From IMG/VR virus record IMGVR_UViG_3300045988_127900: a stretch of DNA of 33,099 bases; one strand, written 5' to 3'. The notes below the pieces were generated by a model, which saw nothing but the letters and a program-made list of their open reading frames with translations, searched no databases and had not been told where the DNA came from. Position 1 is the stretch's first letter. Every line of letters starts with the position of its first letter. Position numbers and translations under genes: made by a program. The stretch comes from a virus. Of the stretch, positions 7,517 through 26,980 are shown piece after piece.

Positions 7517-7847
7517 TGTAAACACCTTCTTTATAAAGAATACAATCAATATTTGTTTCATATTTATTTAGCTCTTTTATATTATTTACATGCTTTATAT
7601 CATAGACAACATCATTACAAACTATTCTCATAGCTTCTGTTATATCAGTTCTATATCTTATTTTAAATCTGTAAGAATACTCTATATTTTCTTTATCTAA
7701 CACATAATTATTACTATTTCTAAGCAACGATTTGTTAGCCCAAAGTTTTTTATAAGTAGCCCATCCCTTTGTAACCTCTCCTATGTCGTTTTCAATTTCT
7801 CCATAAATTTGTATATCTATTCTTTGAGTTAATTTTCCAATATCCAT
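7509..7847 (-). CDS. Head-tail adaptor / head closure protein
   Basis: LTQRIDIQ...GEVTKGWATYKKLWANK matches the head-tail joining family pattern. Confidence 0.7.
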   Translation of the reverse strand: MDIGKLTQRIDIQIYGEIENDIGEVTKGWATYKKLWANKSLLRNSNNYVLDKENIEYSYRFKIRYRTDITEAMRIVCNDVVYDIKHVNNIKELNKYETNIDCILYKEGVYNE

Positions 7848-23286: not shown

Positions 23287-23358
23287 GGGAATTTGATTTA
23301 AAAATCAAATTCAAAAAGTCTAGATAATTTTTTACTTTAATTGTATTTATATTATTTG

Positions 23359-23420
23359 AATATTGTAATTAACAATATTAATATATTGTTGCAATATTAT
23401 AAAAACAATACTACAATATT
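23359..23420. promoter_or_regulatory. Cluster of AATATTG/CAATATT boxes upstream of parA (candidate centromere/operator)
   Basis: Boxes at 23359, 23373, 23383, 23392, 23406 and 23414, some arranged as inverted pairs. Confidence 0.5.
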
Positions 23421-23457
23421 ATTATAATATTATAAATATAATAATGAGGTGGAGAAA

Positions 23458-24267
23458 ATGGCTAATACAAAGCTACTTACGTACTTTAACATAAAAGGAG
23501 GTATCTATAAGACAACAACGTCTATAATGACAGCGTATGAACTTGCGAAAGATAAAGATAAAAAAATACTCTTATGGGACTTAGATGTACAAGCAAATCT
23601 AACACAATATGTTTATGAAATAAATCATAATGATAATACTACATTAGATATTTTAAAAGGGATTAGTGCTAATGATGCAATAGTCAAGTCACCTAATGAA
23701 AATTACATTAATGTAGACTTAATTCCTTCTGACATACAAATGGCTAGATTTGAACAAGAGCTATCACCTTTACCAGCCAGAGAAAAATTTTTAGCTCGCT
23801 GGTACATGCAAAACTTTAATACTTTGAGTGAGTATGATTATATTATCTGTGATTTATCTCCACGCTACGATTTGACAGCTAAAAATGTGCTTTTCTTAGC
23901 AGATAGTATAATTATTCCAATTCAAGATAAAAACATTTCTTCTTTAAGAGGAGCAGAATTATTTAAACAACTCTGGGATGTTGATAGAACCTATTTTGAT
24001 AAGGAGGATAATATAAAAAGTACTATTTTAGTTGGATTTGAGAAGAAGAAAACTCAAATTAGCGATACTTTCGATTCTTATCTGGAAGGGTTTAACGATA
24101 TGAGAGATATTATGTTAGATACATACATTAGAAAAAATGAGTTTATAGAGAAGGCACTATTAAAAAAACTATCTCTAACAGATTATACAAAAATAACTAA
24201 AGAACATTTCAGCAGACAGGAATTTACTAATATGTTAGAAGAATTGAAAAGAAAAGGAGTGTTATAG
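23458..24267 (+). CDS. parA: ParA-family partition ATPase
   Basis: Deviant Walker A NIKGGIYKTTTS. Preferred start is ATG 23458, after GAGGTGGAG. Confidence 0.85.
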   Translation: MANTKLLTYFNIKGGIYKTTTSIMTAYELAKDKDKKILLWDLDVQANLTQYVYEINHNDNTTLDILKGISANDAIVKSPNENYINVDLIPSDIQMARFEQELSPLPAREKFLARWYMQNFNTLSEYDYIICDLSPRYDLTAKNVLFLADSIIIPIQDKNISSLRGAELFKQLWDVDRTYFDKEDNIKSTILVGFEKKKTQISDTFDSYLEGFNDMRDIMLDTYIRKNEFIEKALLKKLSLTDYTKITKEHFSRQEFTNMLEELKRKGVL

Positions 24268-24600
24268 ATGCCAAGTTTCAACAGAGACCTTTTAGTTGAT
24301 AAGGAAAAACCGATTTTGAAAAATGGAACAATCGCACAAAATGATTCTACAACTACAGACAATAAGACATTAAACATATATAATTTAGTTAATAAGAAAA
24401 GTAAAAAAGTGACTATGAGTGCAACGCTTGATGAAGAACTTGTAAACAAATTAAAATCTTTTTCTATTGATATGAACAGCGACGTTAGTAAATTATTAAG
24501 TGATATACTAACTCAAATTTTATCTGATGTCACTATAAAAGAAGAGAATTTAAATATATACAATGAGAGAAATAGAAGAAATAAGACTAAGAAAAAGTAA
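24268..24600 (+). CDS. Ribbon-helix-helix centromere-binding protein (ParG-like partner of ParA)
   Basis: 110 aa. ATG abuts the parA stop. Disordered N-terminus, then MSATLDEELVNKLKSFSIDMNSDVSKLLSDILTQIL, an RHH pattern. Confidence 0.6.
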   Translation: MPSFNRDLLVDKEKPILKNGTIAQNDSTTTDNKTLNIYNLVNKKSKKVTMSATLDEELVNKLKSFSIDMNSDVSKLLSDILTQILSDVTIKEENLNIYNERNRRNKTKKK

Positions 24601-24614
24601 ATAATATTATATTT

Positions 24615-24697
24615 ATATTGTTTAGATATTACTTAAATATTGTATATATAATATTTAAGTAATATTTTAATATTATTATTACAATATATCAATATTG
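24615..24697. promoter_or_regulatory. Second AATATTG-box cluster, including a 16-bp perfect inverted repeat (24626-24641 / 24650-24665)
   Basis: ATATTACTTAAATATT-gtatatat-AATATTTAAGTAATAT, plus boxes at 24615, 24636 and 24690. Confidence 0.5.
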
Positions 24698-24743
24698 TTT
24701 AAATAATATGTTTTAACTATAATCTAAAAAGGGGTTGGAAAAG

Positions 24744-25025
24744 ATGAATGTTTATTTGCAAATTGGAAAAGAGTTATCTGAAAAAATGACTAAATCTGAA
24801 TTAAATAAGTTTTCACAGGAAGTTGTAAATTTTTTGCGATACGCTGGATTTGATAAGGATATGAAAATTAAACTATTTCAAACAATCATAGAAGCAGTTG
24901 CAAGAAAAAAAGTATCATTACCAAGCGACAGCGAATTTACGGAAGGAATATTGCAAAGCGACGAAGCAGAAATGACAATGAACGTAGGATTTTTAATCGA
25001 AGGATTGAGTTATCATAATAATTAA
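24744..25025 (+). CDS. Hypothetical protein
   Basis: 93 aa from ATG 24744, which is 9 nt after GGGG. The tracked TTG at 24735 has no spacing to the RBS. Confidence 0.5.
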   Translation: MNVYLQIGKELSEKMTKSELNKFSQEVVNFLRYAGFDKDMKIKLFQTIIEAVARKKVSLPSDSEFTEGILQSDEAEMTMNVGFLIEGLSYHNN

Positions 25026-25037
25026 ATCTTTAGCATT

Positions 25038-25076
25038 AAAAAAGCAGTGCATTTATTGAATACACTGCTTTTATTT
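25038..25076. terminator. Bidirectional rho-independent terminator
   Basis: AAGCAGTG-13 nt-CACTGCTT, flanked by A6 and T-rich runs. Confidence 0.65.
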
Positions 25077-25301
25077 CCGTATAGTTAATCTAAAAATAAT
25101 GTGATATTATATCATATAGATATAGATTAAATTGATATTTAAATCCCTTATAGTTAATATAAAATAATTTGATATTATATTATTTCTCTATAAATTAAAT
25201 TGACATTTAAATCCCTCATAGTTAATCTGAAAATTCTTATTACAATATCATTTCTAAATAAATTAAAAAATATTTTAAATCCCTTATAGTTAACCAAAAG
25301 C
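25068..25301 (-). CRISPR. CRISPR-repeat-like tandem array: four 29-nt repeat-like elements at 68-69-bp period, no cas genes; iterons are the alternative
   Basis: Elements at 25068-25096, 25137-25165, 25205-25233 and 25273-25301. Minus-strand forms include ATTTTATATTAACTATAAGGGATTTAAAT. Intervening 39-40-nt segments are related to each other. Confidence 0.4.
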
Positions 25302-25335
25302 GATACTATATACATTAATAATAATACTCTTCTAC

Positions 25336-25536
25336 TTAATTTTCAACTATATTTTGTAATTCTTGTTTACAATTTTCAATGCCTTCACGTAATTTTTCTA
25401 AAAAAGCTGATGAGCTATCATCTATATTTCTTTCAGCGATTTCTTCGAAATTTTCTTTATTGAATTTTTCATAACTATCCCAATTCAAACTTTTATCTTC
25501 CTTTTTCACACCATTTTTCGAACTCTTCATAATCAT
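25336..25536 (-). CDS. Small acidic hypothetical protein
   Basis: 66 aa as tracked (44-nt overlap with the upstream gene). Alternative TTG start at 25486-25488, 8 nt after GGAAG, gives 50 aa and no overlap. Confidence 0.45.
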   Translation of the reverse strand: MIMKSSKNGVKKEDKSLNWDSYEKFNKENFEEIAERNIDDSSSAFLEKLREGIENCKQELQNIVEN

Positions 25537-25807
25537 TTACATGGTAAATTTCTCCAAACATATCGTCTAAATGAGTTGGTGCTTGATTTAATGTGAAAAT
25601 ATTAATTTCTTTGTCATCATCTAAAAGTTTAGCCCAAGTTTGAACTGCTATCGCTTCAACTTTTCCTTGTATATCGATATAAATTTTTATATCATTAGTC
25701 TCTTTGATTAAACAACTTTCTTTAAAAGCTTTTATAGCTTCTTCTTCTATTTTATCTATATTCATATCTATAACTCTTAAAAATCTTCTAGCTTTTTGTT
25801 TATTCAT
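25493..25807 (-). CDS. Acidic hypothetical protein
   Basis: 104 aa. GGAGGA RBS. Lies downstream of the consensus promoter at 25848-25876. Confidence 0.55.
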   Translation of the reverse strand: MNKQKARRFLRVIDMNIDKIEEEAIKAFKESCLIKETNDIKIYIDIQGKVEAIAVQTWAKLLDDDKEINIFTLNQAPTHLDDMFGEIYHVNDYEEFEKWCEKGR

Positions 25808-25904
25808 TTTTTATATCCTCCTTTTGATTATTTCTTTCTTTAATTATATTATAAACGTTTGCGTTTATTAAGTCAATAGTTTTTTAAACTTTTCCGTTTA
25901 TTTC
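25805..25904. repeat. Duplicated ~100-bp promoter/operator/RBS module, copy 1
   Basis: Aligns base-for-base, with few mismatches, to 26978-27075, from the CAT of the start codon through the -35 and beyond. Confidence 0.85.
25848..25876 (-). promoter_or_regulatory. Consensus promoter TTGACT-17-TATAAT with the AAACGTTT palindrome in its spacer
   Basis: Minus strand reads TTGACT taataaacgcaaacgtt TATAAT. Confidence 0.7.
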
Positions 25905-26519
25905 TTTTAAGAATTTTTCTTTGGCTTTTTTGTATGCTTCTTCTGCTTCTCTTATGTTGTCATAGTATCCTAGATTATAATGCATTTTCTTAAATTCTAT
26001 TTGTGCACAGTATTTTCTTTTTTCTTTATTCCAAGAAACGCCTCTAATTTTAGTTTTTGAATTAGAATACGCTTCTGTCTTTTTTATAATAGATAGATTT
26101 GTATCATCAATAATATTTTTTTCTTTATGTACTTTTAACGCTATCTTTGCATTTTTTATATTAGATTCCTTTTTCAAGCATCCACATGATTTAGTTCTAC
26201 CAGTAGTTAAATTGTTTTCTGCTGTCTTAATCTCATTTCCACAATCACACTTACAAGCCCAAATATAGTGACCACTTTTAGCTTTTTTATTAGTGTTCTT
26301 TATTGCTGTTAATCTGCCAAACTTTTTGCCTGTTAAATCATTTTGTTTAAACTGTGTGTTACTTTTCATGCATCCACATGCTTTTATTCTTTTTAAACTA
26401 TCTGCCCTTATCCATTTTTCATTATTGCAATTACTACATTTACATAAGCAATATTTCCTGCCATTTTTTTGTTCTATATCTAGTATTGTAAGATTTTCAA
26501 ATTTATCTCCAATTTTCAT
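25884..26519 (-). CDS. AP2-domain DNA-binding protein with two N-terminal Cys-rich repeats
   Basis: RGVSWNKEKRKYCAQIEFKKMHYNLGYYDNIREAEEAYKKA looks like an AP2 fold. Two repeats of G.KF..LT...C.C.C...CGC. Confidence 0.65.
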   Translation of the reverse strand: MKIGDKFENLTILDIEQKNGRKYCLCKCSNCNNEKWIRADSLKRIKACGCMKSNTQFKQNDLTGKKFGRLTAIKNTNKKAKSGHYIWACKCDCGNEIKTAENNLTTGRTKSCGCLKKESNIKNAKIALKVHKEKNIIDDTNLSIIKKTEAYSNSKTKIRGVSWNKEKRKYCAQIEFKKMHYNLGYYDNIREAEEAYKKAKEKFLKEINGKV

Positions 26520-26530
26520 GTTTTCACTTC

Positions 26531-26980
26531 CTACAGATATTTTATAAACATTTCTTTTATCTTAGTTTCAAATTCTTCTGTTGTTATATATTCATCTTTG
26601 TAGTTTTCTTCTAATTCTTCAACATTTCCATTTTCTTCTAAGTATGTTTCATGCATATAATATAAGTCATAAACTTCATTGAATAAAGAACCATCTACAG
26701 TATATAAATGTTTCTCACAAGTGGCTAAATCTTCGTAACTAGCCCCCTCACCTACATAGCATCCTTCAAAAATATTTATATCGAAATCTTTGAATTGACA
26801 TTCACCTGCAAATTCAAACCAATATTCACATAAATTTATTATAGCATCAACACATTTTTCTTTACTTATTTTATAACAACTAATTCCTGCTTCAAAATGT
26901 TCTCCATCTCCAGTTGCAGAACTTACATGTTCTTTTCCTCTAAAGCCCTTATCGTAATCAAGTCTGATGAATTTTTCCAT
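26531..26980 (-). CDS. Strongly acidic hypothetical protein
   Basis: 149 aa, with roughly 37 Asp+Glu against 14 Lys+Arg. First gene after the consensus promoter at 27017-27045. Confidence 0.55.
   Translation of the reverse strand: MEKFIRLDYDKGFRGKEHVSSATGDGEHFEAGISCYKISKEKCVDAIINLCEYWFEFAGECQFKDFDINIFEGCYVGEGASYEDLATCEKHLYTVDGSLFNEVYDLYYMHETYLEENGNVEELEENYKDEYITTEEFETKIKEMFIKYL

Follow-up and report, generated by a model that had tools for sequence, protein, structure and literature searches.

A tandem array of type I-B CRISPR-repeat mimics in the acrIB2 locus of Clostridioides difficile phages is a candidate RNA-level anti-CRISPR

What does a row of degenerate CRISPR repeats (CRISPR standing for short palindromic repeats that are clustered and regularly interspaced) do on a phage that carries no cas genes? 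The question is raised by the IMG/VR virus record IMGVR_UViG_3300045988_127900, a stretch of 33,099 nucleotides (nt) that is referred to as the window throughout, in which four 29-nt elements on the minus strand (25068-25301) recur with a period of 68/69 bp and are separated by intervals of 39, 39 and 40 nt. The coordinates and minus-strand readings in the initial annotation, which had considered these elements a cas-less array of repeat mimics at the end of an operon of small acidic proteins, proved to be exact. Tandem Repeats Finder (period 68 bp, 3.1 copies, score 258) and a repeat search returned the same families. The window region is 100% identical to the Clostridioides difficile phages phiCDHM13, phiCDHM14 and phiCDHM11 (genus Sherbrookevirus). 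None of the 50 coding sequences (CDS) in the RefSeq record of phiCDHM13 is annotated as cas, as expected from the initial annotation, and the array interval carries no annotation in this record. Together with an acrIB2 homolog and a terminator with the convergent gene orf96, the array forms a three-part module. In the following, the repeat mimics are numbered R1 to R4 and the pseudo-spacers between them are called A to C, in minus-strand direction (Table 1). Based on the analysis presented here, an RNA-level anti-CRISPR role of the array, be it of a decoy or a guide type, appears rather probable; its specific form as a multi-copy decoy resembling a precursor CRISPR RNA (pseudo-pre-crRNA), similar to the known RNA anti-CRISPRs (Racr), is the best explanation at hand, and our judgement for and against it is evenly balanced.

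The elements were compared with genuine C. difficile type I-B repeats, namely those of the chromosomal array adjoining cas3-cas4-cas1-cas2 (L014; GTTTTATATTAACTAAGTGGTATGTAAA[G/T], 30 copies) and those of a plasmid/prophage array (L135; GTTTTAGATTAACTATATGGAATGTAAAT, eight repeats with unique spacers of 36-40 nt). Both confirm the C. difficile repeats that had been cited at the outset, and the length of 29 nt and the intervals of 39-40 nt fit this system, as had been claimed. Identity of the mimics to the chromosomal repeat amounts to 19-23/29, while identity to the prophage-type repeat is 22-24/29, slightly under the 23-25 matches first stated; the mimicry of the host type I-B repeat as such stands. 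In shuffled controls, a single match of this strength turned out not to be rare in 70%-AT DNA, since shuffles reach 24/29. The arrangement as an array (three same-strand pairs 62-72 nt apart from four matches of at least 21/29) was obtained in 0/400 dinucleotide shuffles.

The Rfam family CRISPR-DR14, with a threshold of 45 bits, matches R3, R2 and R4 over their full length and in the same orientation as in genuine arrays (scores in Table 1), and an Rfam scan at gathering threshold gave no match in the window. As benchmarks, genuine repeats score 45.9 bits and a genuine degenerate terminal repeat 31.0 bits, and the genuine array L136 ends in repeats of 25, 22 and 22/29 identity. By these scores, the elements are considered to belong to the host repeat family by descent and to be about as degenerate as such a worn end of a real array. 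The closest real repeats (26/29) were found in C. bornimense and in a horse-gut Clostridium metagenome-assembled genome.

Comparable elements were also observed in host sequences. The C. difficile HC132 contig L071 carries a solitary repeat (CTTTTATATTAACTAAGTGGAAAACAGAG; 7523-7551, plus strand) whose 3' end is the foot of a terminator hairpin, an anatomy as in R4 of the window. One-spacer mini-arrays are located on the same contig (1883-1976) and at L017 104-170, and neither of these loci is adjacent to cas genes. Furthermore, the repeat-like sequence TTTTTATATTAACAATGTGGCTAAAATTT (19/29) lies exactly at the cas3/cas4 junction of the full cas operon of the host (L136 11021-11049, plus strand; also L014 near 6963), where it may be due to chance or represent an internal Cas6 site.

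Is the array, then, an adaptive one? In genuine arrays (L014, L021, L135), the motif ...ATTTTGGG is situated directly 5' of the first repeat, and a conserved leader motif upstream of the first repeat has been described for C. difficile arrays (PMC4556805). This motif was not found upstream of R1, where the acrIB2 stop codon and an unrelated linker are located instead. An intact first repeat is missing as well, R1 being degenerate in its 5' half; degeneracy of the last repeat is a trait shared with real arrays. Moreover, there is no sign of polarised spacer gain: the pseudo-spacer types A, B and C are common to all carrier phages, and the variation consists of loss or gain of whole units of these same three types (one to four units). 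When the complete array, including the intervening segments as had been suggested, was searched against 50,697 phage and 72,556 plasmid records, matches were confined to records with a homologous array, and in the rest of the phage the best matches of the pseudo-spacers were at the level of shuffled controls. Within homologous arrays, the repeat end (AAT/AAA) lies next to these matches in place of the CCW protospacer adjacent motif (PAM), so that those arrays would not be attacked. The missing leader motif, the paralogous and shared spacers and the lack of outside matches bear out the early impression that the array is unlike a real one.

These results also affect the interpretation of phage phiCD211, where the homologous array, pseudo-spacers included, is annotated as 'rpt_family=CRISPR'; in the literature, it figures as an array of four spacers directed against known C. 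difficile phages (PMC10732046). These supposed targets are most readily accounted for by the homologous arrays that the phages in question carry, and the phage-targeting reading is not supported. By the module of phiCD211, a 49-amino-acid open reading frame (ORF), PHICD211_20146 (L002 3743-3892, minus strand), is annotated as 'CRISPR-associated endonuclease Cas3-HD'. Among 5.8 billion proteins it has no homolog but itself, and it shows no similarity to the Cas3 of the full operon; the annotation thus appears unsupported.

In agreement with the initial annotation, the three pseudo-spacers are paralogous to each other (61-78% identity). Their AT content of 85-90% compares to 69.5 +/- 9.3% in 30 real spacers. 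Pseudo-spacer C contains TGATATAATATCA, which, as read from the sequence, is a palindrome and an extended -10-like motif (TGnTATAAT), and the last 5 nt of R4 form the foot of the terminator stem. Folding was weak for genuine and mimic repeats alike, and structure therefore does not discriminate between them. A hidden small ORF in the array was considered and rejected: the 47-codon frame is broken between phages by a 2-nt indel in R1 and has no ribosome-binding site. In AR1086-1, a 46-amino-acid 'hypothetical protein' is annotated wholly within the repeat array (ADOKEBJH_00151; L126 2145-2285, minus strand), which is probably a spurious call because this frame is not conserved between phages due to the same indel.

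Sequence conservation across the module is highest in the array. The array shares 92.7% identity with that of phiCD211, acr 72.4% and orf96 81.8%; the respective values for phiCD418 are 92.4%, 75.8% and 87.3%. Among nine 4-unit arrays, 5-28% of the columns are variable, depending on the array segment, in comparison to 39% in acr and 31% in orf96. The repeats are divergent among themselves, as first noted (positions 1-8, 16-17 and 29), and share an 18-nt core of positions 9-15 (TTAACTA) and 18-28 (AGGGATTTAAA), which is invariant in 26 first or internal copies from 13 phages; variability falls on repeat positions 1-8 and 16-17 and on the 3' ends of the pseudo-spacers. Between the paralogs within the window, differences were counted at 0/54 core positions, 17/33 other repeat positions and 40/120 pseudo-spacer positions (core vs pseudo-spacers, Fisher p about 3e-8, with pairs that are non-independent). 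Despite indels, the pseudo-spacers keep a length of 36-40 nt, which is the range of real spacers (PMC4556805), and the seed-side 5' 16 nt of B and C are near-identical and kept across phages, while the 3' ends vary.

Judged by these substitution patterns, the repeat core is under purifying selection. C. difficile crRNAs carry an 8-nt 5' tag (PMC4556805), and the invariant block would span the expected Cas6 cleavage site together with this tag. The 5' portion of the repeat, which is relaxed here, would presumably play a role in spacer integration, a process that is absent in this array.

The module was detected in approximately 30 phage and 25 C. difficile plasmid records, in 19/19 IMG/VR loci found via AcrIB2 and in 28/28 evaluable IMG/VR loci found via the repeat core. 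Its backbones comprise ParA phage-plasmids, the integrase-bearing phiCD418 and 130-kb phiCD211-like phages. The number of units ranges from one, a terminal R4-type repeat fused to the terminator (phiCD481-1, phiCD506 and two IMG/VR contigs), over two (pZ1322HCD0102-4) and three (phiCD38-2, JD032/JD033, phiCD418 and CD1801) to four (window, phiCD211, AR1086-1, AR1074-1 and pCd18_3). This number shifts even between near-identical phages: phiCD481-1 has one unit and the window four, with flanks that are 98.9-100% identical.

The array shares its locus with the homolog of a known anti-CRISPR protein. AcrIB2 of phiCD38-2 is the one inhibitor of C. difficile type I-B immunity that has been validated experimentally (PMC10732046). 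As had been suspected, the small acidic proteins of the operon (pI 4.4-4.9) include anti-CRISPR candidates, two of them being the halves of a homolog of this validated AcrIB2. The split into gp28 and gp29 results from one extra A in the run at 25502-25506 (minus strand), which is A5 in the window vs A4 with an intact gene in JD033, phiCD481-1 and phiCD38-2. This extra A could be a true frameshift, the slippery site of a programmed frameshift or a homopolymer sequencing error common to phiCDHM11/13/14. In a published assay, the split homolog of phiCDHM13 was inactive and gp26 showed no anti-CRISPR activity; gp27 has been proposed as an Aca-like regulator (PMC10732046).

The array lies between the last ORF of the operon (25336-25536) and the terminator, as initially placed, and both this ORF and the hairpin are real. 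R1 begins 35 nt after the gp29 stop codon, a place downstream of the AcrIB2 homolog that the array keeps in every evaluable locus, and no hairpin terminator was found in the linker between acrIB2 and the array. Transcription had been attributed to the promoter at 25848-25876; a consensus-like promoter is indeed present there, but a second promoter-like site (25346-25318), a candidate for a dedicated array promoter, could serve alone. At the other end, R4 runs into the expected terminator, a hairpin of -16.7 kcal/mol (z = -4.1) that leads into a U run. High transcription of acrIB2 and the genes upstream of it has been reported for a stable lysogen of phiCD38-2; this prophage reduces CRISPR interference roughly tenfold, and its acrIB2 proved refractory to deletion (PMC10732046). 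The published effect thus does not distinguish a share of the array from that of the protein.

Table 1. Features of the array and its surroundings in the window.
Feature	Position	Strand	Remarks
Repeat mimic R1, GCTTTTGGTTAACTATAAGGGATTTAAAA	25273..25301	-	22/29 to prophage-type repeat; 5' half degenerate; homologs in other phages
Pseudo-spacer A, 39 nt, 90% AT	25234..25272	-	Top conservation in array; 2/39 columns variable (nine 4-unit arrays)
Repeat mimic R2, TTTTCAGATTAACTATGAGGGATTTAAAT	25205..25233	-	23/29; Rfam CRISPR-DR14 23.9 bits
Pseudo-spacer B, 39 nt	25166..25204	-	Paralog of C (78% identical) and A (62%)
Repeat mimic R3, ATTTTATATTAACTATAAGGGATTTAAAT, best copy	25137..25165	-	24/29; Rfam CRISPR-DR14 30.8 bits, E = 0.049
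Pseudo-spacer C, 40 nt	25097..25136	-	Contains TGATATAATATCA
Terminal degenerate repeat R4, TTTTTAGATTAACTATACGGAAATAAAAG	25068..25096	-	23/29; Rfam CRISPR-DR14 20.1 bits
Conserved 34-nt linker, acrIB2 stop to R1	25302..25335	-	8% variable columns
Promoter-like TTGAAA-17-TATTAT	25318..25346	-	10/12; overlaps acrIB2 stop codon; kept in all linker variants
Bidirectional intrinsic terminator	25034..25072	.	Hairpin 25040-25072 with T/U runs on both strands; common to array and orf96
gp29, C-terminal half of AcrIB2 homolog	25336..25536	-	71% identical to residues 98-156; annotated start 25509
gp28, N-terminal half of AcrIB2 homolog	25493..25807	-	93% identical to residues 1-101 (phiCD38-2 AcrIB2)
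Near-consensus sigma-A-type promoter TTGACT-17-TATAAT	25848..25876	-	11/12; upstream of gp28
gp27, AP2-domain protein	25884..26519	-	AP2 E = 8.6e-6, below Pfam cut-off
gp26, acidic protein, pI 4.4, first operon gene	26531..26980	-	
orf96 (phiCDHM13 gp30, PHROG 4021), convergent gene	24744..25025	+	Predicted 5-helix bundle

We favour a decoy RNA because mimicry of the host repeat, linkage to acrIB2, selection on the core, a crRNA-like geometry, the lack of targets and leader, the solitary form, the Racr precedent and the expression context come together at this locus. Anatomy and evolutionary constraint of the array are well supported, and from these features we infer transcription of the array, binding and cleavage by Cas6, sequestration of Cas proteins and an effect on interference. 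One to four mimics of the host repeat, spaced by non-targeting pseudo-spacers of crRNA length, would form a pseudo-pre-crRNA. This minus-strand RNA would make up the 3' end of the acrIB2 operon transcript or be started separately at the promoter-like site of the array (25346-25318), and it would stop at 25034-25072. Host Cas6 would recognise the repeat core, bind the RNA and probably cut 8 nt before the repeat end. The resulting products would consist of a 5' tag AUUUAAAU, which is near-native (vs AUGUAAAU), a pseudo-spacer of 36-40 nt and a 3' repeat remnant. By competing with the host crRNAs, they may titrate Cas6 and Cascade subunits into target-less complexes. Such a decoy would complement the AcrIB2 protein and could let phage-plasmids persist in hosts with matching spacers.

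Several points weigh against this explanation. C. difficile expresses many abundant crRNAs (PMC4556805), and a decoy would therefore need very high expression. All Rfam scores of the mimics are under the family threshold. In addition, the mimic lacks G1 and differs at A18, G21 and T24 from every sampled C. difficile repeat, in a sample that was drawn with a pattern fixing several positions, so that its 'invariant' positions are partly so by construction; recognition by Cas6 and Cascade is assumed for this reason. Each of A18, G21 and T24 is found in genuine repeats of related clostridia. Conservation in the linker and in pseudo-spacer A exceeds even that of the repeats, for which a pure repeat-decoy model is insufficient, and the high conservation could partly stem from recent horizontal spread and not from selection. 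Two distant AcrIB2 homologs with 57-59% identity, LIBA6276 (L161) and ES-S-0107-01 (L160), are found without the array and orf96, and the array is thus dispensable for the gene family; these array-less loci may be ancestral or have arisen by secondary loss. Finally, the anti-CRISPR activity of the array is one that we infer. In both LIBA6276 and ES-S-0107-01, a linker-like sequence follows the AcrIB2 homolog.

The conservation of pseudo-spacer A and the retained seed-side halves of B and C are the observations that most favour a regulatory guide array of the Cracr kind. In such an array, the pseudo-spacers would guide Cascade to PAM-flanked host promoters (partial cas operon, CRISPR-linked toxin) to silence immunity genes, and their paralogy would mirror that of paralogous targets. 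This model also accommodates the spacer length held at 36-40 nt, and a preprint describes phage 'Cracr arrays' with degenerate repeats in types I-C, I-E and I-F as well as single I-B candidates (bioRxiv 10.1101/2024.10.29.618823). We nevertheless regard it as distinctly unlikely, because CCW-PAM plus seed matches did not exceed the shuffled-spacer null in 21 kb from two metagenome contigs, comprising the full cas locus (WYL regulator, cas6, cas8b, cas7, cas5, cas3, cas4, cas1, cas2 and array) with promoters and leader, and because no CreR-like element with a similar pseudo-spacer start was present in six host loci. The partial cas operon, which is reported as the functional one (PMC10732046), lies outside these 21 kb; in a Cas6 search, only the paralog of the full operon was found in C. 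difficile, plus other genera. Moreover, the one-unit form of phiCD481-1 and phiCD506 contains no pseudo-spacer at all. A relic without any anti-CRISPR role is unlikely, too. According to this view, a leader-distal fragment of a genuine array was captured, resized by unequal recombination and kept as a 3' untranslated or terminator region. Real arrays are carried by C. difficile prophages (PMC4173771; L135) and decay leader-distally, as in L136, with a real terminal repeat scoring the same as a mimic, and the copy number differs between near-identical phages such as phiCD481-1 and the one in the window. A neutral relic, however, should not out-conserve adjacent coding DNA or preserve its core unchanged in all paralogs and phages while the rest of the unit diverges by 22-64%, a pattern with which neutrality is hard to reconcile, and the strict acrIB2 linkage across unrelated backbones argues for a functional module.

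It is very unlikely that the CRISPR likeness is incidental and that the array acts at the DNA level, as iterons, a partition site or an operator array for a phage protein (ParA/ribbon-helix-helix, AP2 or orf96). The plasmid-like nature of the prophages with a parA operon 0.5 kb away, the palindrome and the promoter-like motifs in the pseudo-spacers, the high conservation of the linker and pseudo-spacer A and the strict linkage of orf96 would all be in line with such an element. Yet the module travels with acrIB2 and not with parA, its neighbours differ in phiCD211-like phages and phiCD418, some phages have no AP2 gene, and the one-unit form is free of palindrome-bearing segments. The invariant core falls on positions that are also invariant in a CRISPR repeat family and is recognised by Rfam CRISPR-DR14, which is unexpected for the site of an unrelated protein. 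An iteron or partition site in particular is not supported, since the pseudo-spacers resemble the AT-rich repeats near parA no more than shuffles do and the module is kept without an adjacent parA; the same goes for the replication-origin iterons that the initial annotation had itself named as an alternative. The published reading of the phiCD211 array as a functional mini-CRISPR array for inter-phage competition via host Cas proteins is barely credible and largely refuted by the flanks of its only matches in the phage and plasmid records, which are homologous arrays with AAT/AAA in place of a CCW PAM, by pseudo-spacers that are paralogous, the same in kind across carriers and 85-90% AT, and by the lack of a leader motif.

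The convergent gene orf96 accompanies the array in 28/28 loci, and where there is no array, orf96 is missing as well. Its single-sequence AlphaFold model (predicted local distance difference test 82.7, predicted template modelling score 0.74) is a 5-helix bundle. In a Foldseek search against the PDB, all matches were non-significant (best E = 2.5); ranks 1, 2, 3, 7 and 25 among these are occupied by small subunits from CRISPR effector complexes (Csm2 in 8bmw and 6iqw, chain E of the type I-A Cascade 7tr6), and the template modelling scores of these equally non-significant matches, 0.46-0.58, are the highest in the list. No Pfam, PADLOC or NCBIfam family was assigned to orf96, the PDB sequence search gave nothing meaningful, Foldseek against BFVD returned nothing significant, and sequence-level support for a CRISPR small subunit was not found. 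The predicted resemblance to Cas11/Csm2 is therefore a hint only. It would be a long shot, and we consider it highly improbable, that acrIB2, the array and orf96 form one composite device in which array-derived pseudo-crRNAs and a Cas11-like mimic trap host Cas6, Cas7, Cas5 and Cas8b in dead, target-less Cascade look-alikes, while AcrIB2 handles Cas3; if true, this RNA-plus-protein decoy would be of a kind without prior description. At lower coordinates in the window, 33-bp tandem repeats (23349-23443) precede parA (23449-24267), and an 11-bp-periodic AT-rich repeat block (24603-24709) is located just after orf110 (24268-24600), which shows a weak Arc-like ribbon-helix-helix match. Both repeat regions are candidate partition sites of the plasmid-like prophage.

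C. difficile has an unusually active type I-B system with many arrays, and AcrIB2 is the only anti-CRISPR protein known for it so far. If the decoy explanation holds true, the array would provide both type I-B and this pathogen with their first candidate for an RNA-based anti-CRISPR; it would also be a tandem, crRNA-shaped variant of the solitary Racr and a second component of the very locus that defined AcrIB2. The prophage protection credited to AcrIB2 could then partly be that of the array in the same transcript region. The 'CRISPR array' annotation of phiCD211 and its reading as a weapon against phages also need correction in the light of these results. Decoys of this type could also blunt phage therapy as well as genome editing and antimicrobials based on the endogenous CRISPR system of C. 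difficile. The novelty for this host that had been claimed at the outset stands in that our literature search found the array nowhere described as a repeat mimic or RNA anti-CRISPR; the phiCD211 homolog, on the other hand, had already been annotated as a CRISPR repeat. The same search found AcrIB2 treated in a single paper (PMC10732046) and no paper linking C. difficile phages with solitary repeat units, and the array sequences do not occur in the part of the Racr supplement text that was covered (PMC10651486).

Among known systems, the array is closest to Racr, which are repeat mimics present as solitary units, often next to acr genes (PMC10651486). RacrIC1, for instance, is located 11 nt downstream of an acrIC5 homolog and co-transcribed with it (PMC10651486). 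As in Racr, a mimic of the host repeat is carried by a cas-less phage and adjoins an acr gene, probably on one transcript with a predicted promoter upstream; sequestration of Cas6 and backbone subunits would, by analogy, be the common principle, and the one-unit form of phiCD481-1 and phiCD506 has the exact anatomy of a solitary repeat. It differs in that the window holds four repeats and three conserved, paralogous pseudo-spacers of crRNA length, and most carriers have two to four tandem units, so that complete crRNA-like species could be made. In addition, the array belongs to type I-B in C. difficile, and no I-B Racr was functionally tested in the study cited above (PMC10651486).

Cracr arrays, in which cas or toxin promoters are silenced by Cas proteins under guidance of the pseudo-spacers (10.1101/2024.10.29.618823), are likewise phage mini-arrays of degenerate repeats with several pseudo-spacers that do not serve cleavage. 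Their spacers, however, match PAM-flanked host cas or toxin promoters and resemble CreR/CreA, none of which was found for the present array in the full cas locus, and the reported arrays are of types I-C, I-E and I-F and not I-B. The CreA/CreR RNAs of hosts also have degenerate repeats around a pseudo-spacer and are processed and loaded like a crRNA for purposes other than cleavage, but their place is in the CRISPR-cas loci of hosts and a defined promoter serves as their target, while the array is located on a phage in an anti-CRISPR locus. With the mini-arrays of prophages and viruses (PMC4173771, PMC4556805, PMC11656645), it has in common the repeat family, the lack of cas genes, the C. difficile prophage as carrier and the dependence on host Cas proteins; these, in contrast, are genuine arrays such as L135, with identical repeats, a leader motif and unique spacers to PAM-flanked protospacers, all of which the phage array lacks. 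Taken together, the array is best placed as a tandem, crRNA-shaped type I-B relative of Racr and of the crRNA-like phage RNAs, situated in the AcrIB2 locus.

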